DNA of 64,000 nt from a bacterium (GCA_965221165.1 CBDCRP010000003.1:512001-576000); one strand, 5' to 3'; positions 13,584 to 58,512 are shown, counted from the stretch's first letter. The notes: generated by a model not told the origin, from the letters alone. Translations and numbers: made by a program.

Positions 13584-13632
13584 CGTCAAGGCAAAATCCG
13601 ATGTTCGGGCGGCCCGGTATCAAAAAAGACAC

Positions 13633-13665
13633 AAAAAAAACTCCATGCCCAAGGGGCATGGAGTT
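13633..13665 (-). terminator. Intrinsic terminator of the pyr attenuator
   Basis: Perfect 12-bp stem AACTCCATGCCC/GGGCATGGAGTT running into a U8 tract on the minus strand, upstream of pyrR. Confidence 0.88.
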
Positions 13666-13705
13666 CGGAGAACAGACGAGAAGATGGCAAGCATCCGCGC
13701 TTCCT

Positions 13706-13736
13706 CCTTCGCCGCCTCACGGGACGACATTAAAGG
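13706..13736 (-). promoter_or_regulatory. PyrR binding-loop RNA element
   Basis: Minus strand CCUUUAA-UGUC-GUCCCGUGAGGC-GGCG-AAGG matches the CUUUAA...RUCCNGNGAGGY...AAG pattern. Confidence 0.85.
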
Positions 13737-13834
13737 GGAATTTCTATGTCACCACATTATTTCCACCCGGCGAAGAGCCGGCCGGGCTATTTCCTGAAAA
13801 TTAGCAGTCTTTCCGTGAAAGAGCAAGAGGGAAT

Positions 13835-28154: not shown

Positions 28155-28763
28155 ATGAGCCAGATGATTGAAATCGTAAAACCCACCTCCTTCGTTCGCG
28201 CGGGCGACCACCCCCTGGCGGAGCGCCCCGAAGACCTGGGGGGACTCCGAATCGGCTTTTTCCACAACAACAAGCCCAACGCCGACGTTTTGCTGGAGCG
28301 AATCGAGGAGCTTTTCTCCCAACAAGACGAAACGCTGCGCTTTATCCGCTGGGGAAAGCCGAACCCGACCCTGCCGGAGGATCGCCTCGAAGAATTCCGC
28401 GAACAGGTGGACGTGGCCGTCTGCGCGGTGGGCGACTGAGGGAGTTGCACGTCATGGAGTATCCATGACTCGGTGGAGATGGAAAAGGCAGGCGTTCCGA
28501 CGGCCACGTTCTGCTCCAGTGAATTTTCGGCCCTGGGCGCGAACGAGAGAACGGCTTTGGGGATGCCCGGCCTTCCGATAGTCGTCGTGGCGCATCCGGT
28601 GGGGGGAATCGCGCCCGAAAAAGCGCGCGCTCTGGGAGACGGCGCGATGGAGGAGGTGCGGCGCATCCTCACGAGCGATGCCGAATCGCTCCGAAAGGAA
28701 TACCGGGAACGCGAATACGTCCCGCCCCGAAAGACGGTGCGCCACAAGGCGCTCTTCACATAG
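28155..28763 (+). CDS. UGSC-family selenoprotein, 202 aa, Sec at UGA 28437-28439
   Basis: ORFs 28155-28439 and 28473-28763 are in one frame: ...AVGD-UGA-GSCTSWSIHDSVEMEKAGVPT. This gives a UxxC motif, and a SECIS-like hairpin follows. Confidence 0.88.
28451..28469 (+). promoter_or_regulatory. Bacterial SECIS-like hairpin
   Basis: GTCATGGA-GTA-TCCATGAC, a perfect 8-bp stem after an 11-nt spacer from the UGA, with G in the loop. Confidence 0.8.
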
Positions 28764-28776
28764 GCGGGCCTACAAT

Positions 28777-29853
28777 ATGAACGACCACTCTCAGGAAAAT
28801 CTTGCACTTGAAAGCGAGCGCGTAAAGGTTCGCAACACGCCCGAGGCGCTCGCGCGCCTGCTCGAAGCGCGGGGATGGGGAGACGGCCTGCCCGTCGTCG
28901 CCCCTACGCCCGAGCGCGTCGCCCGAATGGTGGAGGGCGCAGGCCTGGCCCCTGATGCGGAAATCGGCCTCATGCCGCCCCGCCAGGGAGTCATCACCAT
29001 GGAGGCCCTCGCCGTGAACGCCGTGATGGCCGGCTGCCTTCCGGCGTACATGCCCGTTCTGGTGGCCGCGGTCCGGGCGGTGCTGGCGCCCGAGTTCTCG
29101 CTCCACGCGATTCAGGCGACGACCCACCCGGTGGCGCCTCTCATCATCGTGAACGGCCCGGTGGTGGAGGAAATAGGCTTGAACGCCGAATATGGATGCT
29201 TCGCCCCCGGCAACCGGGCGAACGCGACGATAGGCCGCGCGTTGCGCCTGGCGCTTTTGAACATCGGGGGCGCGAGCCCCGGCGTTCTGGATCGCGCCAC
29301 GCAAGGATCCCCTGCGAAATACGCGTTCTGCATCGCCGAGAACGAGGCGGCCTCCCCCTGGGAGCCGCTGCACGTAGAGCGCGGTTTTGCGCCCGAGGAG
29401 AGCGCGGTGACGCTGGTTGGCTGCGAGGGACCCCACAACGTCAACGATCACGTGAGCCACACGGCGGAGGGGATTCTCGCCACCGCCGCCGATACGATGT
29501 CCATCATGGGGAGCAACAATTTCTATCTGCGCGGAGAACCCGTTCTCGCGCTCGGCCCCGAGCACGCGGCGACCATCGCGGGGGACGGCCACACGAAAGC
29601 GGACGTGAAGCGGAGAATCGTCGAACTCGCCCGCAAGCCCGTGCGCCGGCTAAAGCTCGGCGCCATGTGGGGTATGCAGACCTGGGGCGAGGAGATAGCC
29701 AAAAACGAAGGCGATGATGATTTCGAGATTCCGCTTCTCGACGGGCCCCAAGACTTACTCCTCATCGTCACTGGCGGGGCCGGCAAGCACTCGTGCTACC
29801 TGCCCACCTTCGGCCCCACGCGCTCGGTGACCCGGCGGATCGAAAACGGCTGA
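28777..29853 (+). CDS. Conserved hypothetical protein typically paired with UGSC proteins
   Basis: GWGDGLPVVAPT, AVNAVMAGCLP, NRANATIGRA, ENE..SPWEPLHVERGF, GGAGKHS; 13-nt gap after the UGSC gene. Confidence 0.8.
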   Translation: MNDHSQENLALESERVKVRNTPEALARLLEARGWGDGLPVVAPTPERVARMVEGAGLAPDAEIGLMPPRQGVITMEALAVNAVMAGCLPAYMPVLVAAVRAVLAPEFSLHAIQATTHPVAPLIIVNGPVVEEIGLNAEYGCFAPGNRANATIGRALRLALLNIGGASPGVLDRATQGSPAKYAFCIAENEAASPWEPLHVERGFAPEESAVTLVGCEGPHNVNDHVSHTAEGILATAADTMSIMGSNNFYLRGEPVLALGPEHAATIAGDGHTKADVKRRIVELARKPVRRLKLGAMWGMQTWGEEIAKNEGDDDFEIPLLDGPQDLLLIVTGGAGKHSCYLPTFGPTRSVTRRIENG

Positions 29854-29893
29854 GAACAGAAGGGATTGTAATTCCCTGCCTTTCGTTTTTGCT

Positions 29894-30220: not shown

Positions 30221-30622
30221 ATGGGAAAACAACAAATTAACTCGGAGAAGGTAAAGCCGGTCGGCGCGTATTCCACGGGCTGGAAGGTATCGGACGGGCA
30301 TCTCATCATGCTGGCGGGACAGGTGGCGACCGACCTGGACGGAAACACGGTCGGGGGGGACGACATCAAGGCCCAGGCCCGGCAGGTGTACGAGAACATC
30401 AAAGCCGCGCTCGAGGCGGCGGGAGCGGGGATGGAGGACGTCATCCGCCTGACCGTCTACCTCACCGATCATGCGAATTTTCCGGGCAGCATGGAGGTGC
30501 GGCAAACCTATTTCAACGAACCGTATCCGGCGAGCACGCTTCTGATTGTGAGCGGCCTGGCGAAGTCCGAATGGCTCATCGAAATCGACGCGATCGCCTT
30601 CGTGGAAGACGAGAGCCCATGA
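30221..30622 (+). CDS. RidA/YjgF-family protein
   Basis: PVGAYS, LAGQVA, QARQVYENI, PYPAST, LIEIDAIA. Confidence 0.88.
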   Translation: MGKQQINSEKVKPVGAYSTGWKVSDGHLIMLAGQVATDLDGNTVGGDDIKAQARQVYENIKAALEAAGAGMEDVIRLTVYLTDHANFPGSMEVRQTYFNEPYPASTLLIVSGLAKSEWLIEIDAIAFVEDESP

Positions 30623-31473
30623 GGAGCCCGAGAACCATCGCCGAAGCGCTCGTGGTCGTCAAGGGAGGCGGCGACCTCGCCACCGGCGTGGCGCACCGCT
30701 TACACCGCGCGGGCTTTCCGGTCATGATCACCGAGATCGAGAACCCCACCATGGTCAGGCGCACCGTCTCCTTCGCCGAGTGTCTCTATGCGGATGCGTG
30801 GCATGTGGAGGGTGTAACCTCCATGCGGGCGGACGGCGAAACGCCTGCGGAGAAAGCAGCGAACGCGCGCGCCATCCTGGAAGCAGGTTCGATTCCGGTG
30901 ATGGTGGACCCGCGCGCCGAAACGATTCCCCTCGTTCAGCCCGCCGCTTTGGTCGATGCGATTCTGGCCAAGCGGAACCTCGGCACGCGCATGTCCGACG
31001 CCGAGGTCGTGGTCGGCCTGGGGCCCGGCTTCACCGCGGGCCTGGATTGCCACGCCGTCATCGAGACCTCCCGGGGACACGACCTGGGGCGGGTGATTCT
31101 GGAGGGCGCCGCGAAACCGAACACCGGCGTTCCCGGCCCCATCGGCGGCTACACGACCGAGCGGCTGCTGCGCGCGCCCCAGGCCGGCGTATTCACCTCC
31201 ATCGCCCGGATCGGCGACGCCGTGAGAGCGGGAGAAACCCTCGCCCGTGTGGACGGGGCGGAGGTCACCTCCGCCATCGACGGCGTTTTGCGCGGCCTCC
31301 TGAGGGACGGGGTCGAGGTGAGCGCGGGCTTCAAGGTGGGAGACGTCGACCCGAGGGCCGAGCCCGCCCACTGCCACACGATATCCGATAAATCGCGCGC
31401 CATCGGCGGCGGCGCGCTCGAGGCCATCATGATGTTCCTGTTCGGCGTTTCAGCCATGGAGTATGTGAATTGA
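30619..31473 (+). CDS. yqeB: Selenium-dependent molybdenum cofactor biosynthesis protein YqeB (EF2563 type)
   Basis: VVVKGGGDLATGVAHRL, VRRTVSFAE, VDAILAKRNLGT, GLGPGF, ETSRGHDLG, KVGDVDPR, ISDKSRAIGGG; ATGA overlap with ridA. Confidence 0.92.
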   Translation: MRSPRTIAEALVVVKGGGDLATGVAHRLHRAGFPVMITEIENPTMVRRTVSFAECLYADAWHVEGVTSMRADGETPAEKAANARAILEAGSIPVMVDPRAETIPLVQPAALVDAILAKRNLGTRMSDAEVVVGLGPGFTAGLDCHAVIETSRGHDLGRVILEGAAKPNTGVPGPIGGYTTERLLRAPQAGVFTSIARIGDAVRAGETLARVDGAEVTSAIDGVLRGLLRDGVEVSAGFKVGDVDPRAEPAHCHTISDKSRAIGGGALEAIMMFLFGVSAMEYVN

Positions 31474-32354
31474 GCACTGAAATCTTGACGGAAACGGTGG
31501 AAAACGGCGCCTACCGCATCGGGCGCAGCAACATTCCGATCAACGAAGCGAACGGGAACTCCTTCGTTCCCCCCGCGCAGTTCTATCTGGCCGCGGGCGA
31601 TGCGCTCGAGCGCACCGCGTGGGCGGTGAGCCGGAACCTGCCCGTTCTCCTCGTGGGGGAAACCGGCGTCGGCAAGACGCTCTCGGTGCGCCACCTGGCC
31701 CACATGACCAACAACGGCTTCAGGCGCGTGAACCTGAACGGCATGACCACGGTCGATGAATTCGTGGGCAAGCTGATGATCAACGAACAGGGCACCTACT
31801 GGGTGAACGGCATTCTGGTCGACGCCATGCAATCGGGCGATTGGCTGCTCATCGACGAGATCAACGCGTGCCTGCCCGAAATCGCCTTTTGCCTGCACAG
31901 CCTGCTCGACGACGACCGCATGATCGTCTTGTCGGAATACGACGGCCGCATCGTCAAGCCCCATCCGAACTTCAGGCTTTTCGCCAGCATGAACCCCCAT
32001 GAGGACCGCAGGTACGGCGGCACCAAGCCCCTGAACGAGGCGCTTCTGGATCGCTTTCCGGTCACCGTGAAAATGGACTACCTGCCCTTCGAGGCGGAAG
32101 TCGAGGTCATCATGCAGCAGAGCGGAAACCACGACGAAGAGTTGATCAAGCGCATGGTGCGCGTGGGCCACGACGTGCGCGAGGCCATGAAGAACGAAAA
32201 GGTGTTCTGCACGTTCAGCACCCGGCGCCTCATAGACTGGGCGCGAATGGCCGGGCAGTTCGACCCCATGGAAGCCGCCGTCTCGACCATCTTCAGCAAA
32301 GTGAATTCTTTCGACGCCAAGGTGCTCGAGGATATCGTAGACAACCACTTCTAG
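31470..32354 (+). CDS. CbbQ/NirQ/NorQ (MoxR-clade) AAA+ ATPase
   Basis: Walker A GETGVGKT, Walker B LLIDEIN, HPNFRLFASMNP, LNEALLDRF, STRRL; TTG start overlaps the yqeB stop. Confidence 0.88.
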   Translation: MSTEILTETVENGAYRIGRSNIPINEANGNSFVPPAQFYLAAGDALERTAWAVSRNLPVLLVGETGVGKTLSVRHLAHMTNNGFRRVNLNGMTTVDEFVGKLMINEQGTYWVNGILVDAMQSGDWLLIDEINACLPEIAFCLHSLLDDDRMIVLSEYDGRIVKPHPNFRLFASMNPHEDRRYGGTKPLNEALLDRFPVTVKMDYLPFEAEVEVIMQQSGNHDEELIKRMVRVGHDVREAMKNEKVFCTFSTRRLIDWARMAGQFDPMEAAVSTIFSKVNSFDAKVLEDIVDNHF

Positions 32355-32368
32355 CCGGGAGATGAGGC

Positions 32369-34138
32369 ATGGAGCGCCGACGCGCTCGGCTCGAAGCGCT
32401 GGCGCAGGTCACCGCGCACGATTACGACCTCGCCCTGAGCTTCGGCCCCAAGGCGAAGAACGGGGAAGACGCCATTCACGTCGAAGACCCCGAACAAACC
32501 CTCGCGCGCCTGGGCGGCGGGTTGAACGACGAGCACGTCCTCAGATACCAGAAGGGCATGACGCTCATCGAGGTGGCCCATAAAATCCAGGGGACGTTCC
32601 GCTGGGCGGGCCGCGCCGCGCTCGCGAACCGCGAAAGGCCGGGCCTTTTCCATATATGGCACACGCTCGAGGACGCGCGGTGCGAAAACCGCCTCGCGGA
32701 ATCACTGCCCGGCACCAAGAAGAATTTCAGGGCCTTCATCCGTCCGGCCATCGAAGCCGCCGAGCGCAACCACGCGCACGGGGAACTCCCCCTGTTTTTG
32801 CAGATCCAGTGGGGAATCTACCTCGCGGGGGTCGGGCAGACGCCCGGCGTCCCCTCCTCACGGCCCGGAGATCTCCCCGCGGCCTGGTTCGACCCGGCCG
32901 TCGTCCAGATTTTTCACAGGCTCATCCCGCTGATAGATCGCGCCTGCTCGGCCAGTGACCCGAAAACCGCCTTCGATTGCGCAAACGAGATTTACGACGC
33001 CATCCAGCGCTATCTCACCGAAGAACAGCTCACCCGGATGAACGAGCAGGAAGAACTCTCCGACGTTCCCGAAGAAATTCTCCAGAAAATGGAGAATCAG
33101 AACATGGAGGGAGATGAAGACGAATCGCTCGAACTGCTGCACCCCGAAGCCCTCGATGAAATCGATGACGAGGAAGGGGAGCAGATAGAACTCACGCCGG
33201 AGGAACTCGCGGCCCTGGGACACTGGGCTTCGCCCTGGTTCGAGCTCGAGGGGAACAAAAAAGAGATCCACCCCACCGCAGATCATCCCGACGAGCGGAC
33301 CATCGTATTGCCGCCCGAGGGCAAGGCCGAGGAATACGCGGCGATCATGGACAGGGCGGGCAGCGCCATCAAGGTGCTGGTGTGGAAGCTCATGCAAATC
33401 ATCCAGGAGAGAACCTATACCCGTTTCAGCGGCTCGCATCGCTCCGGCAAGCTGAACCTCCCCAAACTCTGGAAACAGCGGCTGGGGAAATTCCATCTTT
33501 TCCACCGAAAAGAAGAACCCGACAAGCTCGACGTCTGCTTCACGCTGCTCGTGGACGAAAGCGGCAGCATGAACCGCGAGTCGAAATACATGGCCGCGAG
33601 AGAGGCGACCATATTCTTCGCCGAAGCGCTCGATCGTCTCGACGTGCCCTTCGAGGTCATAGGCTACTCCACCGAGAGTTCCGAAGCCGCCATGGCGGCG
33701 GCCCTCGGCCACATCCCCGCGTTCAAGTTCCGCCACATCCGGCACTCTCCGCTGCAACACCGCGTCTACAAGGGATTCGAGGATAATTTCCCCCAGGTCA
33801 AGAACCGGCTCGTCAACATCTATCCCCGCTTCAACAACTGGGACGAGGAACACCTCCTGTTCGCCTATCGAAGGCTCATACAGCGGCCCGAGGAGGAGAA
33901 AATCATCATCATCACATCGGACGGCCAGCCCAACGGGGACGCCACCCATCTCGTGAGCACGGTGAACCGGCTGCAAAAGCTCGGCGTCCGCGTCATCGGC
34001 GTCGGCGTGGTGGACCCCTTCGTGGAGCAAATCTACCCCAACCACATCGTGGTGCAGGACCTTTCTCAGCTTTCCACCGAACTCGTGAACATCCTCCGGC
34101 GCGAACTGCTCGGCGGAGTCGAGGCCCGCACTTGGTAG
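32369..34138 (+). CDS. vWA-domain partner of the AAA+ ATPase (NorD/CbbO/CobT-like)
   Basis: LEDARCE, acidic linker, MIDAS LLVDESGSM, SDGQP, VIGVGV. Confidence 0.85.
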   Translation: MERRRARLEALAQVTAHDYDLALSFGPKAKNGEDAIHVEDPEQTLARLGGGLNDEHVLRYQKGMTLIEVAHKIQGTFRWAGRAALANRERPGLFHIWHTLEDARCENRLAESLPGTKKNFRAFIRPAIEAAERNHAHGELPLFLQIQWGIYLAGVGQTPGVPSSRPGDLPAAWFDPAVVQIFHRLIPLIDRACSASDPKTAFDCANEIYDAIQRYLTEEQLTRMNEQEELSDVPEEILQKMENQNMEGDEDESLELLHPEALDEIDDEEGEQIELTPEELAALGHWASPWFELEGNKKEIHPTADHPDERTIVLPPEGKAEEYAAIMDRAGSAIKVLVWKLMQIIQERTYTRFSGSHRSGKLNLPKLWKQRLGKFHLFHRKEEPDKLDVCFTLLVDESGSMNRESKYMAAREATIFFAEALDRLDVPFEVIGYSTESSEAAMAAALGHIPAFKFRHIRHSPLQHRVYKGFEDNFPQVKNRLVNIYPRFNNWDEEHLLFAYRRLIQRPEEEKIIIITSDGQPNGDATHLVSTVNRLQKLGVRVIGVGVVDPFVEQIYPNHIVVQDLSQLSTELVNILRRELLGGVEARTW

Positions 34139-34959
34139 CGGGAGACGGCATCGTTCGCTCCCTCGGCATCAAACCGGGGCAAAGCGTCGCGGCGGTCGGC
34201 GGAGGCGGCAAAACGAGCCTTCTGACGGGCATCGCAAAATGCTTCCACGCGCAAAACGGGAAGTCTGCAATTCTCACGACGACCACCAAGATTTTCGCGC
34301 CGCTCCCCGAGGAGGGGCTTCAACTGGTTCTGGGCGATATCGAGACGCTCTCGGAAAACCTCCGCCCCTACATGGACGCCTGCGGAATCTCCTGGTTCGC
34401 CCGCAGCCGCGAGGGGAAGACGCCGGTTCCGGGCCGGGAGAACGAGCAACGCATGAAACTAGGCGGCTTCGCGCCCACAGAAATCGCCCGCCTCAAGCTG
34501 GGCGATGGCCTCACCCTCATCGAGGCGGACGGGGCGCGAAGACTGCCCATCAAGGCGCCGGGTCCAGATGAACCCGTATTGCCCGGAGGTCTCGACGCCG
34601 TATTGGGCGTCTTGGGTGTAGACGCTCTGGGCGCGCCCCTGGGTGAGGCGCACGTCTTTCGGCCCGAGTTGTTCGGGCGAATATGCGGTCTGAAAGCCGG
34701 TGAGGAGATAACGGCGGAAGCCATAGGGAGATTGTGCGCGCATCCCGAAGGTCTTTTTCACAAGACGGAAGCCGGCGCGCGCAAGTGGATCGTCGTGAAC
34801 AAGGCCGATTTGGAAACTTCGGTGGAAAAATTGGAAAAAACGGCCTATACTATATGGGAACTGGCTGGGAAACCCCATGGTCCGGCGGACGGCATTCTCT
34901 TCACGTCTTGTCTGAATGGCGAATGTGAAGTATTCATGCGGATCATACCGGATGTGTAA
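34132..34959 (+). CDS. yqeC: Selenium cofactor biosynthesis protein YqeC
   Basis: VGGGGKTSL, LTTTTKI, LIEADGARRLPIKAP..EPVLP, HPEGLF, VVNKAD. Confidence 0.9.
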   Translation: MVAGDGIVRSLGIKPGQSVAAVGGGGKTSLLTGIAKCFHAQNGKSAILTTTTKIFAPLPEEGLQLVLGDIETLSENLRPYMDACGISWFARSREGKTPVPGRENEQRMKLGGFAPTEIARLKLGDGLTLIEADGARRLPIKAPGPDEPVLPGGLDAVLGVLGVDALGAPLGEAHVFRPELFGRICGLKAGEEITAEAIGRLCAHPEGLFHKTEAGARKWIVVNKADLETSVEKLEKTAYTIWELAGKPHGPADGILFTSCLNGECEVFMRIIPDV

Positions 34960-34990
34960 CTACTGCAATTCCACGTAAGCGGAGCGGGAA

Positions 34991-36136
34991 ATGAGCAAGG
35001 ACGTATTCAAGGAGATGACCAGGCTGAAGGAAGACGGCCAGAGCGGCGCGCTCGCCACCGTCGTGGCCCGCAAGGGGTCTGCGCCCATGAGCGGCGATGC
35101 GAAGATGCTCGTGCGCGAGGACGGCAGCACGGAAGGCACCGTCGGGGGCGGCTGTCTCGAGGCGGAAGTCTGGGAAACCGCGATGAGCGTCCTCGAAACG
35201 GGAGAACCCGAAAAACTCACCTTCGACCTCACCCAGCAGGAAGCGGAAGACAGCGGACATATCTGCGGCGGCGTCGTGGAGATACTGGTGGAACCGTTCC
35301 AGGCGTTTCAGGAAGAGTTGCTCGGGGAGATCAACCGAATCAGGAACCAGGGCGGCAGCGCGGCGCTGGCGACCATCGTTCAGCCGGGCGAACTCGATAT
35401 CCCGACGCCCGAGGCCAGAAAAATGCTCTTCCGGCGCGACGGCAGCTCCGTAGGCGAAATTCCCAACTACTCGACGGAAATCTGGGCGGAGAGCACGCAA
35501 ATCATCCGCCAGGGCAGCCCCACGCTCTTGCAGTTCAACAGAGACGCTGCGCGCGCGGGCGGCAAAAGGTCCACGCTCGAGGGGGCTACCGAAATCTTCG
35601 TCGAACCCATATCCGGCCAGCCGCTCGTCTATATCTTCGGCGGCGGTCACGTGTCTTTCTGCGTCGCGCAGGCGGCCTACCTCGGCGGCTTCCGGGTCGC
35701 GATCGTCGAAGACAGGCCCTCGTTCGCGAACAAGGAACGCTTCCCGATGGCGGAGTCGTTCTTCGTGGGAGAATTTCCCGAGATTTTCGAGAAAATTCCG
35801 GTCGACGAGTCGGACTACCTCGCCATCATCACCCGGGGCCACTCGAACGACGAGGTCGTCCTCGAATGGGCGATGAAGACGCCCGCGCGCTACATCGGGA
35901 TGATTGGCTCCAAAAGCAAGGTGCTGCTCACCTATCGCCACCTTCAGGACAGGGGCTACGAGCGAGGCGAACTCATCGGGCGCGTTCATGCGCCCATAGG
36001 TCTCGACATCGGCGCCGATACGCCGGGAGAGATCGGGGTCGCCATCGTCGCCGAACTCATCCGCCACCGCCGCCGGGGCGTGGCCGAGGGCGAGGGCACG
36101 GGCAGCAAAAGGGTGCAACTCAGAAGAAAATCCTAG
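34991..36136 (+). CDS. xdhC: XdhC/CoxF-family Mo-cofactor insertion chaperone
   Basis: LATVV..KGSAP, GTVGGGCLEA, ICGG, IFGGGHV, YIGMIGS, HAPIGLDIGADTPGEI. Confidence 0.9.
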   Translation: MSKDVFKEMTRLKEDGQSGALATVVARKGSAPMSGDAKMLVREDGSTEGTVGGGCLEAEVWETAMSVLETGEPEKLTFDLTQQEAEDSGHICGGVVEILVEPFQAFQEELLGEINRIRNQGGSAALATIVQPGELDIPTPEARKMLFRRDGSSVGEIPNYSTEIWAESTQIIRQGSPTLLQFNRDAARAGGKRSTLEGATEIFVEPISGQPLVYIFGGGHVSFCVAQAAYLGGFRVAIVEDRPSFANKERFPMAESFFVGEFPEIFEKIPVDESDYLAIITRGHSNDEVVLEWAMKTPARYIGMIGSKSKVLLTYRHLQDRGYERGELIGRVHAPIGLDIGADTPGEIGVAIVAELIRHRRRGVAEGEGTGSKRVQLRRKS

Positions 36137-36217: not shown

Positions 36218-36973
36218 ATGGGTTATCTCCGCAGGCTCATCGGCGCAGCGACGGATTTCCTCATCCCCCCGAAGTGCCTTTTGTGTTCGGCTTCCATGCA
36301 AATCGGCGACCCCCATGCGATATGCGCCCCTTGTACGGACGCTTTCGAGCGTTTCGAACCGCCTTGGTGTCCCAGGTGCGGCGACCCCTTCCGCTCCCAA
36401 GCCACCCTCGCCCACTCCCCGGCCCACGTTTGCGCGGATTGCCTGGAAAATACCCACCATTACGACATGGCCCGCGCCATCGGCGCGTATGAAGGCTCGC
36501 TGCGAGAATCTATCCACCTCTTCAAATTCCAGGGTTTCACAAAACTGGCGCGTGAGTTCGCTCCCCATCTCGCCGAACTCGCGACGGACGAATTAGGTGC
36601 GGATGAAGACGCCCGAAATGTGCTCCTGACGCACGTGCCCATCGACCCAGCCCGCTGGAGAACCAGAGGCTTCGATCAAGCGATGCTGCTCGCACTCAGG
36701 ACGGCGGAGCACCTGGGCGTGCCCCACGCGGATTGCCTCGAGCGCGCGAAGGCGACCCGCTCGCAAACGGGATTATCGGCGAGAGAGCGGCACCGGAACA
36801 TGCGGGGCGTCTTCCGGGTTCGCTCCAAGGGTAAGCGCCGAGATATTGAGGCGGCCACGTGCATACTCGTCGACGACGTCGTCACGACCGGCGCGACCGC
36901 CTCGGCCTGCGCGAGAGAGCTCAAAAAAGCGGGCGCCGAAGCCGTGCACCTGCTCACCATATGTCGCTCATGA
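36218..36973 (+). CDS. comF: ComF-family protein
   Basis: Double zinc ribbon (CxxC x4), RGFDQA, QTGLS..ERHRNMRGVF, LVDDVVTTGAT. Confidence 0.9.
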   Translation: MGYLRRLIGAATDFLIPPKCLLCSASMQIGDPHAICAPCTDAFERFEPPWCPRCGDPFRSQATLAHSPAHVCADCLENTHHYDMARAIGAYEGSLRESIHLFKFQGFTKLAREFAPHLAELATDELGADEDARNVLLTHVPIDPARWRTRGFDQAMLLALRTAEHLGVPHADCLERAKATRSQTGLSARERHRNMRGVFRVRSKGKRRDIEAATCILVDDVVTTGATASACARELKKAGAEAVHLLTICRS

Positions 36974-37909: not shown

Positions 37910-37935
37910 GGGCGGACACACGGTTCCGCCCCTAC
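37910..37935 (-). repeat. GTAG-type REP
   Basis: gggcggacacacggttccgcccctac. Confidence 0.7.
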
Positions 37936-38447
37936 GAACGAAACTCGCCTCCCCTGCTTCCGCCGTTCACGACCATCCGCGCCGCGAGGATGAGGGCATC
38001 CACCATGCTGGAGGGGTCGGCGATGCCGCGTCCGGCGATGGGGTAGCCCGTCCCGTGCTCGACCGAGGTCCTGATGATGGGCAGGCCCAGCGTCACGTTG
38101 ACGCCGCGAACGCTGCGAACCCGAAAGCCGACTGCCAGTATCATCGGTAAGGCGTAATGGTGTATACGGTATTCCTTGCCATCCGAGGCAGTTATTAAAA
38201 AATCCTTAACAACTGAATTTTTATCTAACTCTCTTTCTTTCAATATGTTGGATATATGGATACTGATATTCGCCTTGGAGGTGGCAAAAAGTTCGGCGAG
38301 TTGACTTTGATTCAACCAGATAGTGCCGTCATGGGTGTAAAGCCCCACGGCAATTTGACCATCCGGAGTGTTGTAGATGATTATGTCCTGCTTATCCAAG
38401 ACTACCTCCAAAATTGGAATTCTCATTCCCTCAGATCTGTATATCAC
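37932..38447 (-). pseudogene. Truncated RhuM-family gene fused in frame to a duplicated pdxA 3' end
   Basis: [56 protein letters not shown] is the RhuM N-terminus. It continues into [18 protein letters not shown] from PdxA. Confidence 0.8.
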
Positions 38448-38754
38448 CCATCCCGAAAAATGCGTAGTGAAACACCCGCATCTCCCAACATTCGCAATGA
38501 GCTTCGCTCTGACCCATGCGCTATTTTCATTGAGGCTGCATTTGAGTTCTCGCCGCTAGCCCGAGCAGAAGTCGGACTTTTCTGACAAAGATTTTATTTT
38601 TTATCTATTCACGACCATCCGCGCCGCGAGGAGGAGCGCGTCCACCATGCTGGAGGGGTCGGCGATGCCGCGTCCGGCGATGGGGTAGCCCGTCCCGTGC
38701 TCGACCGAGGTCCTGATGATGGGCAGGCCCAGCGTCACGTTGACGCCGCGAACG
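37966..38754. repeat. 147-bp direct repeat (37966-38112 and 38608-38754)
   Basis: Aligned by eye: 3 mismatches in 147 bp, offset 642. Confidence 0.9.
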
Positions 38755-39629
38755 GCCCCCTGCCCTTGTGAGTCGAAGCGAAAACACATTAATTTTCCCG
38801 GAATATGGCCCTGATCATGATACATGGCCACCACACCAGAGTAGTAGCCGCCGCGCAGCTTGCCGAAAATCGTGTCGGGCGATTCAGGCCCGTGCGCGTC
38901 GACGCCCATCTCCCTTAGGTCCGCGACCGCGGGCGCGATTTCCTCCACTTCCTCCCTGCCGAACAGCCCGGCCTCGCCCGCATGGGGATTGAGACCCGCC
39001 ACGCCGATTCTGGGTTGCTTGCGGTCCAGAAGGCGCAGGGCATCGTCCAGAACGCGCGCCACGTATACGATTCTTTTTCTCTTGACGCGCCTGAGCGCCA
39101 CCCTCAAAGGACAATGGGTGGAGAGGTGCGCGATGCGAATCTTGCGGTGCGCCAGCATCATAACGGGCCGCCCCTTCCCGCACAGGGCGGCGAGCATTTC
39201 GGTATGTCCCGGGTAGTCATACCCCCCGGCCTGTAAGGATTCCTTGTTTATCGGCGCGGTGGCGACGGCGTCCGCCCGGCCTGAGCGCGCCATCGAGACG
39301 GCCTTTTCGATGTACTGGCCGGACGCTGCGCCCAATTCGGAGAGAACTTTTCCGAAAACGCGGTGCCCGGAAGCCACGTTCTTGAGATCAACCACGGGCG
39401 TGATATCCGACCCATGATATCGCGCAAGCGCTCCTTCGTCCTTGACCCGTTCCAGCCGGGCCGGAATCTTCATCCTCCGCGCGTGTTTCCTCAAAACGGC
39501 CATATCGCCGACGATGAGGGGCACGCATTTTTTCTGGACGCTCTCCACCCGGGCGGCCTTGAGGCAAACCTCGGGTCCCACTCCCGCCGGGTCTCCCATG
39601 GTCATTGCGATTACGGGTCGTCGTTTCAA
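38601..39629 (-). CDS. pdxA: 4-hydroxythreonine-4-phosphate dehydrogenase family
   Basis: [44 protein letters not shown]; likely TTG start at 39629. Confidence 0.92.
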   Translation of the reverse strand: MKRRPVIAMTMGDPAGVGPEVCLKAARVESVQKKCVPLIVGDMAVLRKHARRMKIPARLERVKDEGALARYHGSDITPVVDLKNVASGHRVFGKVLSELGAASGQYIEKAVSMARSGRADAVATAPINKESLQAGGYDYPGHTEMLAALCGKGRPVMMLAHRKIRIAHLSTHCPLRVALRRVKRKRIVYVARVLDDALRLLDRKQPRIGVAGLNPHAGEAGLFGREEVEEIAPAVADLREMGVDAHGPESPDTIFGKLRGGYYSGVVAMYHDQGHIPGKLMCFRFDSQGQGAVRGVNVTLGLPIIRTSVEHGTGYPIAGRGIADPSSMVDALLLAARMVVNR

Positions 39630-39842
39630 TACGGATTCCTTTTTTCTCTCCGCGCCGGATAAGGGAAAATATCGTCCCGCCTGAAAAAGCCCGGGCGATA
39701 TCGACCGCACAACATTATCATATCCGCGCCATCTTCGATTCGAGAGAATATTTTCCGGGAACTCTTGACTTTGGCAATGCGCGACACAGAAGATGGGTCT
39801 CTTAATATAAAGAATATGAAATTACCATCGAGAGGCAAATCC

Positions 39843-49912: not shown

Positions 49913-50881
49913 ATGGCCCCCTCTCCCGAACTACCGGAGCGCCTTCTCGTCGCCGTGGGTGGCAACGCGACCCATCCGCCCGAAATCAGGGGCACGGCCG
50001 AAGAACAGGCCGCCATCGCCGAGGCGACGGGCCGCTCGCTCCTTCCCCTCATGAGGCTTGGCAACGAACTCATCGTCACGCACGGAAACGGCCCGGTCGT
50101 GGGAAAAATCCTGATGCGCCAGGCGATCTCGAGCGAGCAGGTGACCCCCATGACGCTCGACATCTGCGTCGCGCACAGCCAGGGGGGAATCGCCTATCTG
50201 CTCATGCAGGCGTTCGAAAACGCGCTGCGCCGGGCGGGCGACCCGCGCCACGTGGTCTGCCTCCTGACCCAGGTCGAAGTCGACCCCGGCGATCCGGCCT
50301 TCGGTGCGCCGACGAAGTTCGTGGGCTACACCTACACCGAAGATGAAGCCAGGCGATACGAACGCGAGATGGGCTGGACGATGCGAGAAGACTCCGGGCG
50401 CGGCTGGCGGCACGTGGTCGCCTCCCCGAAACCAAAGCACATCGTGGACATCTCGCTCATCCAGACCATAGCGCAAAGCGGCGCCGTGGTTATCGCAGGA
50501 GGAGGCGGGGGCATTCCCGTCGTGCGCGAGGCCGACGGCGCGCGCCGGGGGCTCGCTGCCGTCATCGACAAGGATTTGACTTCCGCGCTCATGGCGAACG
50601 TCTTGAAGATAGAGACCATGATGATCCTCACCGCCGTGCCCAGGGTGGCTATCCACTTCGGGACGCCGCAGCAGCGCGAACTGGAGCGGGTTTCGCTCTC
50701 TGAAATCAAAGAGTACCACGCCCAGGGCCACTTCCCGCCCGGCAGCATGGGCCCCAAGATAGAGGCGGCGGTTCGCTTTCTCGAAGGGGGCGGGGAGCGG
50801 GTCCATATCGCCGCTCTGGAGGACGCCGTCCCCGCCCTGCTCGGCGAGGCGGGAACCTGTATTTATAAGGATGAGGGGTGA
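49913..50881 (+). CDS. arcC: Carbamate kinase
   Basis: VAVGGNA, THGNGP, PTKFVG, VASP.P, GGGGIPV, VIDKDL, GSMGPKIEA. Confidence 0.94.
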   Translation: MAPSPELPERLLVAVGGNATHPPEIRGTAEEQAAIAEATGRSLLPLMRLGNELIVTHGNGPVVGKILMRQAISSEQVTPMTLDICVAHSQGGIAYLLMQAFENALRRAGDPRHVVCLLTQVEVDPGDPAFGAPTKFVGYTYTEDEARRYEREMGWTMREDSGRGWRHVVASPKPKHIVDISLIQTIAQSGAVVIAGGGGGIPVVREADGARRGLAAVIDKDLTSALMANVLKIETMMILTAVPRVAIHFGTPQQRELERVSLSEIKEYHAQGHFPPGSMGPKIEAAVRFLEGGGERVHIAALEDAVPALLGEAGTCIYKDEG

Positions 50882-50918
50882 CCCTCAGAGAGAGTGGAAG
50901 AGAGAGGAATTGCTCTCC

Positions 50919-51019
50919 GTAGGGGCGGACCTGCGTGTCCGCCCTTTGCGAGCGCCCATGAAGCCACCGCGCCATCGGGCCGAATTGAAAATCGGGCGGA
51001 CACGCAGGTCCGCCCCTAC
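50919..51019. repeat. REPIN-like inverted pair of GTAG REPs
   Basis: gtaggggcggacctgcgtgtccgccc (50919-50944) and its exact reverse complement (50994-51019). Confidence 0.88.
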
Positions 51020-51179
51020 GCCACTTCGAAAACCGCAACCGCTCATCATAAATCGGTATTCACCCCCCACCGGCGCGCCTTTGGACACGCGCTGCGAAGG
51101 GGTGCTACGTTTTTTCCCATAACGATTCCGGTTTCCATCCGCGCGCAAGGGCGCGCACGAGGCGAAAGGGGGTTTGGAC

Positions 51180-52283
51180 ATGCAGGCCGATCTGTTCCGC
51201 GTGGCGATGGATTCACCAGACGACATATCCGGCGTGGTCGCTCTCGTCGAGGAGGGAAAATGCCGCCCCGAAGAAATCGTCGGCATCATGGGGAAAACCG
51301 AGGGAAACGGCTGCGTGAACGATTTTTCCCGGGGATTCAGCAATTTCGTTCTGCTCGATTATTTCTCAAAGGCGATGGGAAAAGCGCGAGAAAAGGTGGA
51401 AGAACAGATCGCCCTCATCATGTCCGGCGGAACCGAGGGGGTCATGTGTCCCCATTTTTCGGTGTTCACCAAGTCCGCGAGCGGGCCGGGAGACGGAAGC
51501 GCAAAGCGCCTCGCCGTCGCCTCGGGCCATACGGCGGACTTTTTGCCGGAAGAAATGGGCAGGATGCCCCAGGTCCACGCGACGGCGGATCTCATCCGGC
51601 AATTGATGGAAGAGGCGCAAATCGATAGTGCTGCGGATCTGCATTTCGTGCAGGTGAAGTGCCCGCTCTTGACCGGAGATCGCATGGCGGACGCCTTTAG
51701 GCGCGGAAAGACGGTCTGCACCGAGGACACGTATAAGTCGATGGGGTACTCGCGCGGCGCCTCGGCGCTGGGCGTGGCTCTGGCGGCCGGCGAGGTGGAA
51801 GAGAGCCTCTTGAGCGACGACGTGGTTTGTAAGGACTGGTCCCTGCAATCGGGAGTCGCCTCGACTTCTGCGGGAATCGAACTGATGTGCAACGAGGCGA
51901 TGGTCATCGGCAACAGCGCGGCCTGGGGCGGAGAACTCGTCGTCGGCCACGGCGTCATGCAGGACGCCATCGACCGCGACGCGGTTCGAGACGCCATCGT
52001 GAACGCCGGGATTTCATTCGACTGGGCGCTCTCGCCCGAGGAACGCGCGCGAATCGTCAACGTATTCGCCAAATGCGAGGCCTCCCCCGACGGCCTGGTG
52101 CGGGGCCGCAGGCACACGATGCTCGACGATTCGGACATCAACAACACGCGCCACGCCCGCTCGGTGGTGAACGCCGTGGTCTCCTCGGTCGTCGGCGACA
52201 CGATGATGTACGTCTCGGGTGGTGCTGAGCACCAGGGCCCTCCCGGCGGCGGGCCCGTCGCGGCGGTCGTCCGGGCGGAGTAG
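51180..52283 (+). CDS. atzD: Cyanuric acid amidohydrolase / ring-opening amidohydrolase (AtzD/barbiturase family)
   Basis: GKTEGNGCVNDFSRG, MSGGTEG, VQVKCPLL, SMGYSRGASALG, STSAG, YVSGGAEHQGP (cyanuric-acid-hydrolase-like rather than barbiturase-like). Confidence 0.88.
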   Translation: MQADLFRVAMDSPDDISGVVALVEEGKCRPEEIVGIMGKTEGNGCVNDFSRGFSNFVLLDYFSKAMGKAREKVEEQIALIMSGGTEGVMCPHFSVFTKSASGPGDGSAKRLAVASGHTADFLPEEMGRMPQVHATADLIRQLMEEAQIDSAADLHFVQVKCPLLTGDRMADAFRRGKTVCTEDTYKSMGYSRGASALGVALAAGEVEESLLSDDVVCKDWSLQSGVASTSAGIELMCNEAMVIGNSAAWGGELVVGHGVMQDAIDRDAVRDAIVNAGISFDWALSPEERARIVNVFAKCEASPDGLVRGRRHTMLDDSDINNTRHARSVVNAVVSSVVGDTMMYVSGGAEHQGPPGGGPVAAVVRAE

Positions 52284-52463
52284 CGCATCTACATCACTGC
52301 GCTCGAAGTCGCCGTCCCCATCCTCCGCGGCGATACGGGCGCCTGTATTTATAAGGTCAAACACGATTGATGAATGAGTGTTTGCCGACCGAGGCGGGAG
52401 AAAAATCACTCCCCCCTTTTTTATAATCACTCTCCTCTTCTCGCTCGGGTTTGACGGTTTTGA

Positions 52464-52721
52464 CGTCATTCCGGTGTCAGACCCGACCAATGCGGGAGGG
52501 TTTGCGGAATCCATTGGTTTTGCCTTTGTTTTTTATTTCCTCATTGATTCCCGCGAATAACAGGGGGATGAAGATCCAAAGCATTGTCTTTCGGCTCGGC
52601 TCTGGATTCCGGCATGCGCCGGAATGACGGCGGTGGTGAATTCCGACCGAGGAGAGAGGTTATGCGAATCGTTGATTTCCTCATCTGTAAGCAATCGCTC
52701 CCTCTTCGGTCGCGATTGACC
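52464..52721. repeat. REP cluster (CGTC-type plus an inverted pair of GGTCA hairpins)
   Basis: ctggattccggcatgcgccggaatgacg at 52602-52629; hairpin units at 52635-52666 (+) and 52690-52721 (-). Confidence 0.75.
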
Positions 52722-52725
52722 TCGC

Positions 52726-53802
52726 TTATCCCGCCGATAAGTTGCGCCTGGCTTGTACGAACACCACCGTGAGCACGATGATGGCCTGAAAGACGAACAC
52801 CGCGGCGCCCGGCAGTCCGATGCTGCGCTGCAGTGAATCGGAACCCGAGACCAGCACGGCGAACACCGCGGCGGCTATCGTCACCCCCAGCGGGTTGTTG
52901 CGCCCGATGACCGCGATCAGGATGGCCATCGCGCCGTAGTTGGGCGCGCCCTCCGCCCCGCTGATCCCCAGAAGAAGGCTCTGGTGGAATCCCGAGACCT
53001 CGATGGCCCCGGCCAGACCCGAGAGCGCGCCGCAGGTCGGCATGATGATCAGGGTGATGCGCGCGACGTTGATTCCCCCAAAACGCGCGGCCCGGGGGTT
53101 GTCCCCCACCGCGCGGATCTCATACCCGACGATGGTGCGCGTCATCAAGAAATACATGCCGAGAGCCGCCGCCAGCGCGATGATGAAGCCGAAGTGCGCG
53201 CCCGATTTCGGCATGACCTGGGGCAACACGGAAGCGTCGGGGATCGGGAGCGAGATGGCTTCTCCCGCCAGGGGGTCGTTCCAGGGGCCGTTGGCGAGGT
53301 AATCCACCAGATAGAGCGCTACGAAGTTCAGCATCACCGTCACGAAAATCTCGCTCACCCGGAAGCGCACGCGCAGGATTCCGGGAATGAATCCCCAGAA
53401 CCACCCGCCCAGAATGCCGCCCAGCATCCCGAGCGGAACGAATATCGGCCAGGGCAGGTTCAAACCTTCTAAAGCAAAGGCCGTGCCCGTCATGCCGATC
53501 GCGCCCGCGTATATCTGCCCGTCCACGCCGATGTTGAAGTGGCCCCCCCGCATCCCGAAGGCGACCGCGAGCGAGGCGAGCAGAAGCGGGCAGAATTTGT
53601 TCAAGGTCTGAGCGAATCCGCCCCACGTGCCGAGCGAGGAGCGCAAAACGGTCCCGAGCGCGACGAGCACGTCCCCGCCGAAGGCGACGATGAAGATTGC
53701 GCCGCACGCCAGGGCCAGTATAGCCGCCGTCGAGTAGGTGATCGCGATTTCAATGGCCGCTTTTTTCTTCTCGCTCACACTCGCCGCGCTTAAACTCGCC
53801 AT
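52726..53802 (-). CDS. ABC transporter permease (nucleoside/purine, BPD_transp_2 type)
   Basis: FNIGVDGQ, SEIFVTVMLNF, GYEIRAVGDNPRAA. Confidence 0.88.
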   Translation of the reverse strand: MASLSAASVSEKKKAAIEIAITYSTAAILALACGAIFIVAFGGDVLVALGTVLRSSLGTWGGFAQTLNKFCPLLLASLAVAFGMRGGHFNIGVDGQIYAGAIGMTGTAFALEGLNLPWPIFVPLGMLGGILGGWFWGFIPGILRVRFRVSEIFVTVMLNFVALYLVDYLANGPWNDPLAGEAISLPIPDASVLPQVMPKSGAHFGFIIALAAALGMYFLMTRTIVGYEIRAVGDNPRAARFGGINVARITLIIMPTCGALSGLAGAIEVSGFHQSLLLGISGAEGAPNYGAMAILIAVIGRNNPLGVTIAAAVFAVLVSGSDSLQRSIGLPGAAVFVFQAIIVLTVVFVQARRNLSAG

Positions 53803-53803
53803 T

Positions 53804-55354
53804 TTAAGAACCCGCCCCCTGTTTGTGGCCCGCCATGAGGGCGCCTATCTGGTAGATGTCGTACTCGGGGCCGTCAAAAGCGCCTGAAATCTCCCCCGCA
53901 TAGATCACGACGATGCGGTCGCTCATGAGGCGAAGCTCGTCCAGGTCTTCTGATATCAGCAACACCCCGGCTCCGCCCGCGCGAAGCTCCCGCAGTCGGC
54001 CGTGGACGAACGATGCGGCCATGACGTCGAGACCGCGCGTGGGGTTGTTGGCGATCATCACCTTTCCGCCGGTCTTGTGGGCGAGCATGACCGAGCGCGC
54101 CACGATGGTCTTCTGGATGTTTCCGCCCGAGAGATGCGCGGCGGGCACGTGCTCGTTTCGAGCCAGGATGTTGAATTCCGCGATGGCGTTTCTGCCCATC
54201 TCATGGACGGCCTCGCGCTCGAATATTCCGCGCCGCTTGAAGATGTGCGGGTGCAGGCCGAGCACGAAATTCTCCGCAAGGCTCAGGCCCGGCAGAATCC
54301 CCTCCTCGATCCTGTCCTGCGGCAGGAGGCTCATCCCCCGCGCGATGCGCCCCGACACCGAAAGGTTCGATACTTCCTCGCCGTCGATGTGGACCTCGCC
54401 CTCTTCTATTTCGATGAGCCCGGCCAGGGCTTCCGCCAGTTCCTTCTGGCCGTTTCCCGAGATGCCCGCCATGCCGACGATGAGCCCCCGGGGGACGTCG
54501 AAGGCGACGTCCTTGAGAGGAACCCCCCACTTCGCCGAGGTGCGCACCCCCTGGACGGACAAAGCGGGATGTCCCTCCCGGGCCGCCGAGGGTCCGGTCG
54601 GCCGCTCGCCCTCGGGAGGCATGCCGCGCTCGCCCATCATCATCTGGACGAGTCTTTCGCGGGTGGCCTCTTCGCGGGGGATCGTGTCGATCTTCAGCCC
54701 GCCCCGGAAGACGGTGATCCGGTCGCAGTTGTCCAGAACTTCTTGGATTTTGTGCGTGATGAAGACGACCGTCAGACCCTCCTTGGCGAAGGACTTCAAG
54801 ATGGAGAACAGGCCGTCCACCTCGTGGGGGGTTAGCATGGTCGTCGGCTCGTCCAGAATCAGGATGTCCGCGCCGTGATACAGCGCCTTCAGGATTTCGA
54901 CCTTCTGCTGAATCCCGGCGGGAAGGGTTTTCACCTGCTCATCGAGCGGGATGGAGAGGCCGTAATTCGCCGCAAGCTCCTCCACGGAACTGCGCCGGGC
55001 GTCCACGTCGAGCTTCCAGCGCGAGCCCTCTTGTCCGAGCAGAATGTTCTCGAGCGCGGTGAAATTGCCGATCAACTCCACGTGCTGGTGAACCATCCCG
55101 ACGCCGACCGCGATCGCATCCTGGGGCGAGCGGATCTCCACCTCGCGCCCTTCGATCGCAATCTGTCCATCGTCCATGCGGTAGAGGCCGCTCAGGATGT
55201 TCATGAGCGTGGTCTTGCCCGCGCCGTTCTCTCCCAGGAGGGAGTGGATCTCCCCCCTGGCGGCCTCGAAGTCCACCGCGTCGAGGGCGCGGACTTCCCC
55301 GAAGGATTTGCTGACGCCGTACATCTCGACGCGGGAATTCATTTTTTCCGTCAT
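53804..55354 (-). CDS. ABC transporter ATP-binding protein (tandem domains)
   Basis: GENGAGKTT, ILDEPT, LSGGNIQK, PTRGLD, ISEDLDE. Confidence 0.92.
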   Translation of the reverse strand: MTEKMNSRVEMYGVSKSFGEVRALDAVDFEAARGEIHSLLGENGAGKTTLMNILSGLYRMDDGQIAIEGREVEIRSPQDAIAVGVGMVHQHVELIGNFTALENILLGQEGSRWKLDVDARRSSVEELAANYGLSIPLDEQVKTLPAGIQQKVEILKALYHGADILILDEPTTMLTPHEVDGLFSILKSFAKEGLTVVFITHKIQEVLDNCDRITVFRGGLKIDTIPREEATRERLVQMMMGERGMPPEGERPTGPSAAREGHPALSVQGVRTSAKWGVPLKDVAFDVPRGLIVGMAGISGNGQKELAEALAGLIEIEEGEVHIDGEEVSNLSVSGRIARGMSLLPQDRIEEGILPGLSLAENFVLGLHPHIFKRRGIFEREAVHEMGRNAIAEFNILARNEHVPAAHLSGGNIQKTIVARSVMLAHKTGGKVMIANNPTRGLDVMAASFVHGRLRELRAGGAGVLLISEDLDELRLMSDRIVVIYAGEISGAFDGPEYDIYQIGALMAGHKQGAGS

Positions 55355-55418
55355 AACGCCTTCCGTTCGGAGCGCCCCCACCCTCGCTCGCAAGTCCGGG
55401 AGGGGGCGCTCACATCTT

Positions 55419-56420: not shown

Positions 56421-56466
56421 TTCACACTCCTCCTTGATGAGAAAGCACATTATCCCGGGCGCGGGC

Positions 56467-57408: not shown

Positions 57409-57770
57409 GAAGGCGTACTCCCCGCAGTGGTATGAAAATGTGAACACTCGTCTCCGCGCGCCGCTTCCCGGGAGACGGGGCATATTGTCCTTGTGGCTTG
57501 GCGGTCAGTATGCCTCATGTATTTCTCAAATTCAAAATACCGCCTTTATGTTTCCGGCGTGTAACGCGGATTTTTCCTTTCCAATTTTTCATTCCGTTCC
57601 CTCTAATCAGCCTCGGCGCGCCGTCCGCCGCGTTGCGTTCGCGATGAAGGCGGATGCGTTGCCCGCCGCGTTCGGTTCATACATAATGCGCCCATTGCAC
57701 ACGCTTCCCTATGAACCGACTGCCAAGATGGAGATCGTTTCTTTTCTTCGTCCAAAAGGAGACCTCCGAA

Positions 57771-58487: not shown

Positions 58488-58512
58488 CCCTCGGGCAACT
58501 GGAGCGAGTGAA

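Follow-up and report, generated by a model that had tools for sequence, protein, structure and literature searches.

The question addressed here is why genes for an AAA+ ATPase and a von Willebrand factor A (VWA) protein should be situated between yqeB and yqeC in a stretch of 64,000 nt of bacterial DNA (GCA_965221165.1 CBDCRP010000003.1:512001-576000; hereafter the window, within which coordinates are counted). YqeB is a marker of the selenium-dependent molybdenum-hydroxylase (SDMH) trait, and YqeC is the second marker of the selenium cofactor. A reading made without database searches (the sequence-only reading) had placed ridA, yqeB, the AAA+ and VWA genes, yqeC and xdhC in one operon and had proposed that the pair is a CoxDEF-like machine that opens a molybdenum hydroxylase so that a selenium ligand can be installed. 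The results presented below support well a role for the pair in the maturation of molybdenum hydroxylases of the xanthine oxidase family. The best explanation, to which we assign a probability of roughly 60 %, is that this is a central maturation operon with a dedicated CobS/CobT-like motor acting on those enzymes.

All of the genes in question lie on the + strand. The product of yqeB (30619-31473) scores 360.5 bits against TIGR03309 (cut-off 220). Its gene is followed by those for the CobS-like AAA+ ATPase (31470-32354; AAA_5 101 bits, CbbQ_C 38.5 bits) and for a CobT-like VWA/MIDAS protein of 589 residues, referred to here as the adaptor (32369-34138; CobT_C 67 bits, VWA 29 bits). Next come yqeC (34132-34959; TIGR03172 154.5 bits, cut-off 73.05; PF19842 113.6 bits) and a gene for a molybdenum-cofactor insertion chaperone of the XdhC family (34991-36136; XdhC_CoxI 95 bits, XdhC_C 123 bits), which reaches 306 bits against NF045664, under the cut-off of 350. 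The variable first gene of the operon, ridA (30221-30622, in an open reading frame (ORF) from 30203), encodes a RidA/YjgF family protein (PF01042 99 bits; TIGR00004 85.8 bits, under the cut-off of 106).

The junctions between these genes are tight. The ridA stop and the yqeB start overlap as ATGA at 30619-30622, the TTG start of the ATPase gene at 31470 overlaps the yqeB TGA stop at 31471-31473 (an alternative in-frame TTG lies at 31485), and the TTG start of yqeC at 34132 overlaps the adaptor TAG stop at 34136-34138. The ATPase and adaptor genes are separated by 14 nt (32355-32368), and yqeC and xdhC by 31 nt (34960-34990). The common strand, the overlaps and the gaps that had been claimed were all confirmed from the DNA and the gene calls. 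A consensus scan revealed no + strand terminator-like site within the operon, which is weak evidence because 11 sites were found where 11.5 were expected; the same scan placed such a site just 5′ of ridA, at 29861-29877. No molybdenum-cofactor riboswitch was found upstream, the sole Rfam match in the window being a PyrR site.

Both members of the pair possess the motifs expected of an AAA+/VWA couple of the MoxR class. The ATPase has intact Walker motifs, A being GETGVGKT (residue 63) and B WLLIDE (residue 125), and the MIDAS motif of the adaptor (DESGS at residue 396) is likewise intact and is invariant in 29 sequences. With the multi-module midasins set apart, the solved single-module relative that scored best against the ATPase was CobS (96 bits), followed by NorQ (81), CbbQ (79) and a MoxR-type protein (44). 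A profile built from the 29 adaptor sequences was closest, among solved structures, to CobT (106 bits), in the C-terminal part only. The N-terminal domain was placed by hhalign, since Foldseek, given the full adaptor model, matched only the MIDAS domains of midasin and NorD. The hhalign comparison with a plasmid protein carrying PF06213 and CobT_C gave a probability of 99.8 % over 513 columns and took in the N-terminal domain and its LEDxR motif; by this alignment the adaptor has a CobT-like domain build. In its AlphaFold2 (AF2) model (pLDDT 77.8), residues 1-230 make up a helical N-terminal domain and residues 389-581 the VWA domain, with an acidic, disordered linker at 243-294. At residues 66-72 the family consensus is HExxH-like (TLHExAH); the window protein is degenerate here (IEVAH), and the second histidine, H71, is invariant in the 29 sequences. 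The N-terminal domain of CobT is termed an M48C domain in the CobSTN preprint (10.64898/2026.07.21.739949).

Judged by sequence, then, the pair is CobS/CobT-like, yet lies outside CobS and CobT proper. The ATPase scores 87.5 against the CobS equivalog TIGR01650 (cut-off 558.55) and the adaptor 54.7 against the CobT equivalog TIGR01651 (cut-off 759.05), and no match to CobN/ChlH (PF02514) was obtained in the window's own genome, which is 96 % complete. Membership of the CoxD/CoxE families was considered and is ruled out. The ATPase matches CoxD of plasmid pHCG3 with 29 bits (26 % identity, 23 % gaps) and contains a CbbQ_C domain that is absent from CoxD; the adaptor gave no significant BLASTP match to CoxE (E 0.076) and none to PF05762 at E 0.001 or better, the family of CoxE, which matches it with 288 bits. 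The term 'CoxDEF-like' thus expresses an analogy and not membership. The other half of that proposal, a machine for molybdenum-hydroxylase active sites, fares better, in that the pair occurs together with yqeB, yqeC and xdhC or with hydroxylase genes, as described below.

CoxD, NorQ and two CobS-like proteins from plasmids served as references in an ATPase tree. The subclade to which the window ATPase belongs (63 % identical or more over the AAA protein) is compact, with branches of at most 0.35, and is distant from every reference (branches of 4-10 changes per site). The placements of the references in this tree are unreliable, and CoxD is positioned by long-branch attraction. When the ATPase was compared with 1.84 billion representatives, midasin-like giants dominated; among the 150 matches listed there was one single-module protein (76 % identical) and no new lineage. 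Plasmid records matched by the ATPase in tblastn numbered 3915, all at less than 60 % identity.

Conservation of the arrangement was assessed from relatives of the adaptor, 63 of which were found at E 0.001 or better among 8000 candidates scored. A scan of species-representative genomes gave 193 stretches encoding an adaptor relative, and the locus counts that follow use the best 80 of the 193. By adaptor identity, these comprise 37 loci at 53-97 %, five loci at 42-47 % (a sister family), 26 Chloroflexota loci at approximately 33-50 % (best segment), one archaeal locus at 24 %, one fragment, and 10 Firmicutes-type loci with similarity in the VWA domain only. For the 37 closest loci, neighbours were counted only where the contig leaves room for them. 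It is apparent that the core of the operon is fixed: YqeB was present in 32 of 32 loci, the AAA protein in 32 of 32, YqeC in 35 of 35 and XdhC in 33 of 33, with median spacings of -4, 14, -7 and 31 nt. RidA was present in 24 of 32. Because these four neighbours are kept in all related loci with room, the arrangement is more than chance, and the assignment of the pair to the same operon as yqeB, yqeC and xdhC stands. Of 51 genomes from the window's phylum, 48 carry the adaptor gene, as do 14 of 15 genera. Since these genomes are kin, the layout is most reasonably regarded as a single arrangement that is old and stable.

In the sister family, only yqeB and the AAA and VWA genes remain together. 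Its yqeC is present and unlinked in the four genomes tested: two of these have it on the contig of yqeB, at distances of 367 and approximately 600 kb, and the remaining two on a different contig. At two of the five sister-family loci, genes for an FAD subunit and a hydroxylase large subunit are situated approximately 3.5-4.7 kb downstream. Three genomes of the phylum have no adaptor. One of these, 67 % complete, has retained part of a YqeB as well as 11 hydroxylase matches. The remaining two belong to a single genus, are 95 % complete and consist of 2 and 6 contigs; they have neither YqeB nor any match to MoCoBD_1, and have kept selD. Sister genomes of the latter two, G227 and G233, belong to the class of the window's own genome and contain 68 and 65 MoCoBD_1 matches, respectively. 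At 3.7 and 5.1 Mb, G227 and G233 display an extreme expansion of xanthine-oxidase-family enzymes.

The genome in which the window resides (3.69 Mb, 8.5 % contamination) encodes SelD (329.8 bits, with one in-frame TGA) and 11 xanthine-oxidase-family large subunits, counted as MoCoBD_1 matches. The proposal would have fallen had either selD or molybdenum hydroxylases been lacking; both are there. With YqeB and YqeC above their curated cut-offs, this gene content agrees with the accessory set of the SDMH trait. YqeB is encoded once in the genome, within the operon, and the single PF02625 match genome-wide is the operon copy of XdhC, a result with which tblastn agrees. Two copies of yqeC were found, the second unlinked to the operon. 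With the only XdhC, the only YqeB and one YqeC, the operon would be the central unit by which this genome matures its molybdenum hydroxylases of the xanthine oxidase family. Genes resembling mobA/mocA are also present, one of them adjoining a hydroxylase gene. Two other places in the genome are AAA_5-like; one was set aside as a candidate, being located among DUF58 and BatA/VWA genes and not among hydroxylases.

The second yqeC locus (L102:7094-9033, i.e. C3:1667094-1669033) is preceded by a gene for an iron alcohol dehydrogenase and followed by one for an M20-family peptidase. An AIRS-like gene near this second yqeC adjoins a thiamine monophosphate synthase (TMP-TENI) gene, and we take it to be ThiL-like rather than SelD-like. 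The M20 peptidase gene ygeY is among the genes listed with the selenium trait by Haft and Self (PMC2276186).

Independent evidence for an association with the enzymes themselves comes from a second phylum. In the Chloroflexota, the ATPase is 63-74 % identical to that of the window, and the adaptor has diverged. Three of the 26 Chloroflexota loci start inside the adaptor gene and are uninformative, leaving 23. In 22 of these 23, the ATPase gene has upstream of it, in the same orientation, a gene for a molybdenum-hydroxylase large subunit; the distance between the hydroxylase and ATPase matches is less than 350 nt in 19 of the 22 loci and 1.6-2.5 kb in the other three. Where the contig reaches far enough, the upstream set comprises the genes for the FAD and 2Fe-2S subunits and two genes that together encode the large subunit. 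An XdhC gene is found 6-7 kb downstream in 13 of the 26 loci. The pair thus occurs with a particular enzyme operon in the Chloroflexota and, in the window's phylum, with the operon for maturation in general; what the two contexts share is the molybdenum hydroxylase, with XdhC nearby in both. The nearest relatives of the pair accordingly have yqeB, yqeC and xdhC, or else hydroxylase structural genes, linked to them, and the lack of linkage that would have told against the sequence-only reading does not occur.

The identity of the Chloroflexota enzyme is suggested by the one example tested. The closest solved relative of the enzyme at locus L080 is the nicotinate dehydrogenase of Eubacterium barkeri: the two halves of its large subunit score 233 bits against NdhL and 218 bits against NdhM, the next best matches being 164 and 156 bits, and the subunit is split in the same way as in that enzyme. 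Selenocysteine at the in-frame stop of the Chloroflexota large subunit was considered and rejected, because the stop falls at varying positions in the linker and is followed by a Met; the subunit is truly encoded by two separate genes, like that of nicotinate dehydrogenase. The structure of nicotinate dehydrogenase contains a terminal Mo=Se.

As we infer it, the pair would work in the following manner. The CobS-like AAA+ protein would probably form a hexameric ring. Part of the VWA/MIDAS region of the CobT-like adaptor would enter that ring, and a client would be gripped between the N-terminal and VWA domains of the adaptor. ATP hydrolysis would then deform the client, by analogy with the action of CobST on CobN and of NorQD on nitric oxide reductase. 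The client is most likely a folded molybdenum-hydroxylase large subunit, perhaps along with XdhC, and its deformation may allow the insertion or completion of a cofactor with a labile sulfur or selenium ligand. In the CobSTN preprint, six CobS subunits are described as forming the base, with one CobT on top, and the CobN client is placed between CobT's N-terminal domain and its C-terminal one, near the MIDAS site (10.64898/2026.07.21.739949). For NorQD, a finger of the NorD VWA domain is reported to enter the NorQ pore, and force on the NorD linker to enable metal insertion (PMC13036017). The operon with its linked motor suggests an energy-requiring maturation step that has not been described.

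Several observations weigh against this explanation. To our knowledge, most organisms mature molybdenum hydroxylases without such a motor. As the loci within the window's phylum are kin, their conservation amounts to approximately one observation, to which the Chloroflexota add one more. No client gene is encoded in the window; the absence from it of selD, mocA and the target enzyme, noted in the sequence-only reading, holds for the ORFs scanned. Nor is there a clear orthologue of the Chloroflexota enzyme among the 11 enzymes of the window's own genome (30-42 % identity), and at one informative Chloroflexota locus, L066, the 1,149 nt of upstream sequence show no gene for a hydroxylase. Finally, an archaeal CobST-like pair adjoins HEPN/nucleotidyltransferase genes, and one on a Caballeronia plasmid is situated in an unrelated context. 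The molybdenum link therefore belongs to the compact subclade and not to all CobST-like pairs. Plasmid-borne pairs of CobS-like ATPase and VWA genes in L111 (Stutzerimonas) and L108 (Caballeronia) have no CobN nearby, and one of them has an intervening DUF3150 gene.

A narrower explanation, which we hold to be possible and put forward only tentatively, is that the motor is a selenium-specific installer that, via YqeB and perhaps YqeC, places labile selenium on the molybdenum centre, with selenophosphate supplied by SelD. The gene order is suggestive in this regard, given that, in each of the 32 phylum loci with room, the gene immediately before that for the ATPase is yqeB, which also stays adjacent in all five sister-family loci, with yqeC gone from the locus in the four genomes tested. 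The L080 enzyme is also closest to E. barkeri nicotinate dehydrogenase, which has been called selenium-dependent (10.1101/2025.04.24.650524), although the same source states that the sequence of a hydroxylase cannot reveal selenium dependence. SelD is encoded in the five Chloroflexota genomes tested and in 46 of the 51 phylum genomes. Co-occurrence with YqeB can be read both ways. In a first set of 26 genomes with the pair, YqeB exceeded its cut-off in 25 (for the Chloroflexota 17 of 18, with a fragment in the eighteenth); it also did so in five of seven further pair-bearing Chloroflexota genomes, the two without it being of unknown completeness. The Chloroflexota total is 22 of 25 plus one fragment; YqeB was not found above cut-off in the pair-bearing archaeon. 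Against this must be set a background of 117 of 201 sampled Anaerolineae genomes with YqeB, among which the adaptor occurs in one, the centre genome itself. The enrichment of YqeB with the pair (88 % versus 58 %) is real but modest, and is among kin. In two Chloroflexota genomes, moreover, yqeB and a yqeC::mocA fusion are located beside a different, unsplit hydroxylase, with their own XdhC and FAD/2Fe-2S subunit, on a separate contig from the pair in one genome and approximately 930 kb from it in the other. We know of no such pair in E. coli or in the clostridia with the selenium trait. The main texts of three papers on the trait also make no mention of one: 'ATPase' has 0 occurrences in that of PMC2276186, 'AAA', 'ATPase' and 'von Willebrand' have 0 in that of PMC11448449, and none of these terms appears in that of 10.1101/2025.04.24.650524. 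Slightly less probable is the specific conjecture that the motor is the missing energy-requiring step of labile-selenium biogenesis, opening a nicotinate-dehydrogenase-type hydroxylase to which YqeB Cys252 hands over selenium. If true, it would mean that a chelatase-like machine has been re-used to insert a non-metal ligand.

The pair might instead repair enzymes that have already been assembled, re-opening hydroxylases that have lost the labile ligand or bound an inhibitor, much as the CbbQ/CbbO Rubisco activase does. The terminal S/Se ligand of molybdenum hydroxylases is labile, the ATPase contains a CbbQ_C domain and matches the solved CbbQ at 79 bits, and the presence of 11 to 68 such enzymes per phylum genome would favour a shared service machine. 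The location of the pair among the assembly factors XdhC, YqeB and YqeC suits assembly at least equally, however, and the genomic data do not separate repair from the maturation operon favoured here; we consider repair improbable. Least probable, and already disfavoured, is that the pair drives a true or alternative metal chelatase (for cobalt, or for copper as in CO dehydrogenase) or is a functionally unlinked neighbour. CobS and CobT are indeed the closest named families, but the own genome contains no CobN/ChlH, and the equivalog scores are low (87.5 versus 558 and 54.7 versus 759). The overlapping start and stop codons, the conserved gene order, the hydroxylase genes linked to the pair in a second phylum and the joint absence of the pair and the hydroxylases also argue against this alternative.

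The AF2 model of YqeB (pLDDT 89.5) has a Rossmann-like N-terminal part and a BCCP-like barrel, and Cys252 is invariant in 15 aligned sequences; YqeB is plausible as a chalcogen carrier. YqeC contains a P-loop-like AVGGGGKT near its N-terminus. The fusion mentioned above, of YqeC to a MobA/MocA-like nucleotidyltransferase, is encoded after YqeB and next to a hydroxylase gene at L105:9052-11294 and L106:9450-11716 (both Chloroflexota). The fusion connects YqeC with the step of cofactor synthesis that involves the dinucleotide. A DUF6909 protein is also encoded in L105 (724 bits). RidA had been suggested to scavenge aminoacrylate, an idea for which no support was found because RidA is the least conserved member of the operon and at least 12 further RidA-like places exist in the genome. 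Downstream of xdhC is a gene for a ComF/GntX-like phosphoribosyltransferase with a double zinc ribbon (36218-36973, + strand; DZR_2 plus Pribosyltran domains). This neighbour is conserved, being present in 28 of the 31 closest loci with room at a median gap of 77 nt. We know of no link between ComF/GntX-like genes and molybdenum enzymes, and its membership of the system is uncertain.

Other features of the window were also recorded. Upstream of ridA, on the + strand, lie a gene for a UGSC-family selenoprotein (28155-28763, with an in-frame TGA at 28437-28439; NF041046 142 bits, cut-off 125) and, immediately after it and just 5′ of ridA, a gene of 358 residues without a family match (28777-29853). 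By tblastn, the own genome contains seven UGSC-like genes and 13 copies of the 358-residue gene, some of them adjoining hydroxylase genes (for example at C3:2027590-2034900); the two genes are paired 5′ of the operon in the closer relatives only (17 loci). Approximately 14 kb downstream of the operon, a cluster at 49913-61484 resembles those for N-heterocycle breakdown. It encodes a carbamate kinase-like protein, a ring-opening amidohydrolase of the AtzD/TrzD type (492 bits), a BMP-family ABC transporter, an FdrA-like protein with a CoA-ligase domain, and AllG (314 bits). The PyrR binding-site RNA (13631-13740, - strand; 55.7 bits, gathering score 54) is situated 5′ of pyrR-like, pyrimidine and carbamoyl-phosphate synthesis genes. 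On the - strand at 37932-38447, a RhuM-like N-terminal piece is joined to the last ~45 residues of PdxA; with a full pdxA next to it at 38601-39710, this ORF has the appearance of a remnant.

Pairs of AAA+ and VWA proteins that complete the active sites of metalloenzymes are already known, and what is new here is the operon, which is undescribed in the main texts searched. The sequence-only reading knew of no described yqeB-AAA-VWA-yqeC arrangement, and none was found in print; the main text of PMC2997495 holds YqeB and AAA+ in separate contexts only. The route by which labile selenium or terminal sulfur reaches the buried molybdenum centre is still unknown, and YqeB and YqeC were said in a 2024 study of C. 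difficile to have no known domains and no clear mechanism (PMC11448449). A motor between yqeB and yqeC, found elsewhere behind a nicotinate-dehydrogenase-type enzyme, offers a concrete set of parts. It would give motors of the CobS/CobT type a further client besides CobN, and may help to explain genomes with 11 to 68 xanthine-oxidase-family enzymes but a single XdhC.

The system can be compared with four that are known. It resembles the SDMH accessory set (YqeB, YqeC, YgfJ/MocA and SelD) in its YqeB and YqeC and in the selD of its genome, and differs from it in that the published set, in the main texts, includes neither an ATPase nor a VWA protein. A link between XdhC and YqeB, seen likewise in the window operon, has been reported in the form of fusions by Haft and Self (PMC2276186) and also in PMC2997495. 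With CoxD, CoxE and CoxF of the CO dehydrogenase of Afipia (Oligotropha) carboxidovorans, it shares the co-encoding of an AAA+ protein, a VWA protein and an XdhC-family protein, presumably in the service of a xanthine-oxidase-family enzyme. The role of the Cox proteins is post-translational cluster assembly (PMC4240915, PMC3471820, PMC2997495). Just as coxDEF follows coxMSL, the Chloroflexota pair follows structural genes, which adjoin it in the 22 loci noted above but not in the window; the window pair belongs to different families, and no copper-type partner is evident. NorQ/NorD and CbbQ/CbbO share with it the AAA_5 plus CbbQ_C build of the ATPase and a VWA fold like the MIDAS domains of NorD and midasin, whereas the client and the N-terminal domain of the adaptor differ. 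The closest likeness is to CobS and CobT, motor and adaptor in the aerobic cobaltochelatase CobNST; among named families, these gave the highest scores for both window proteins. The adaptor shares with CobT its N-terminal domain, acidic linker and VWA/MIDAS build, and the pair presumably shares the hexameric ring under a client-clamping adaptor, but its neighbours are the genes of molybdenum enzymes and not those of cobalamin synthesis.

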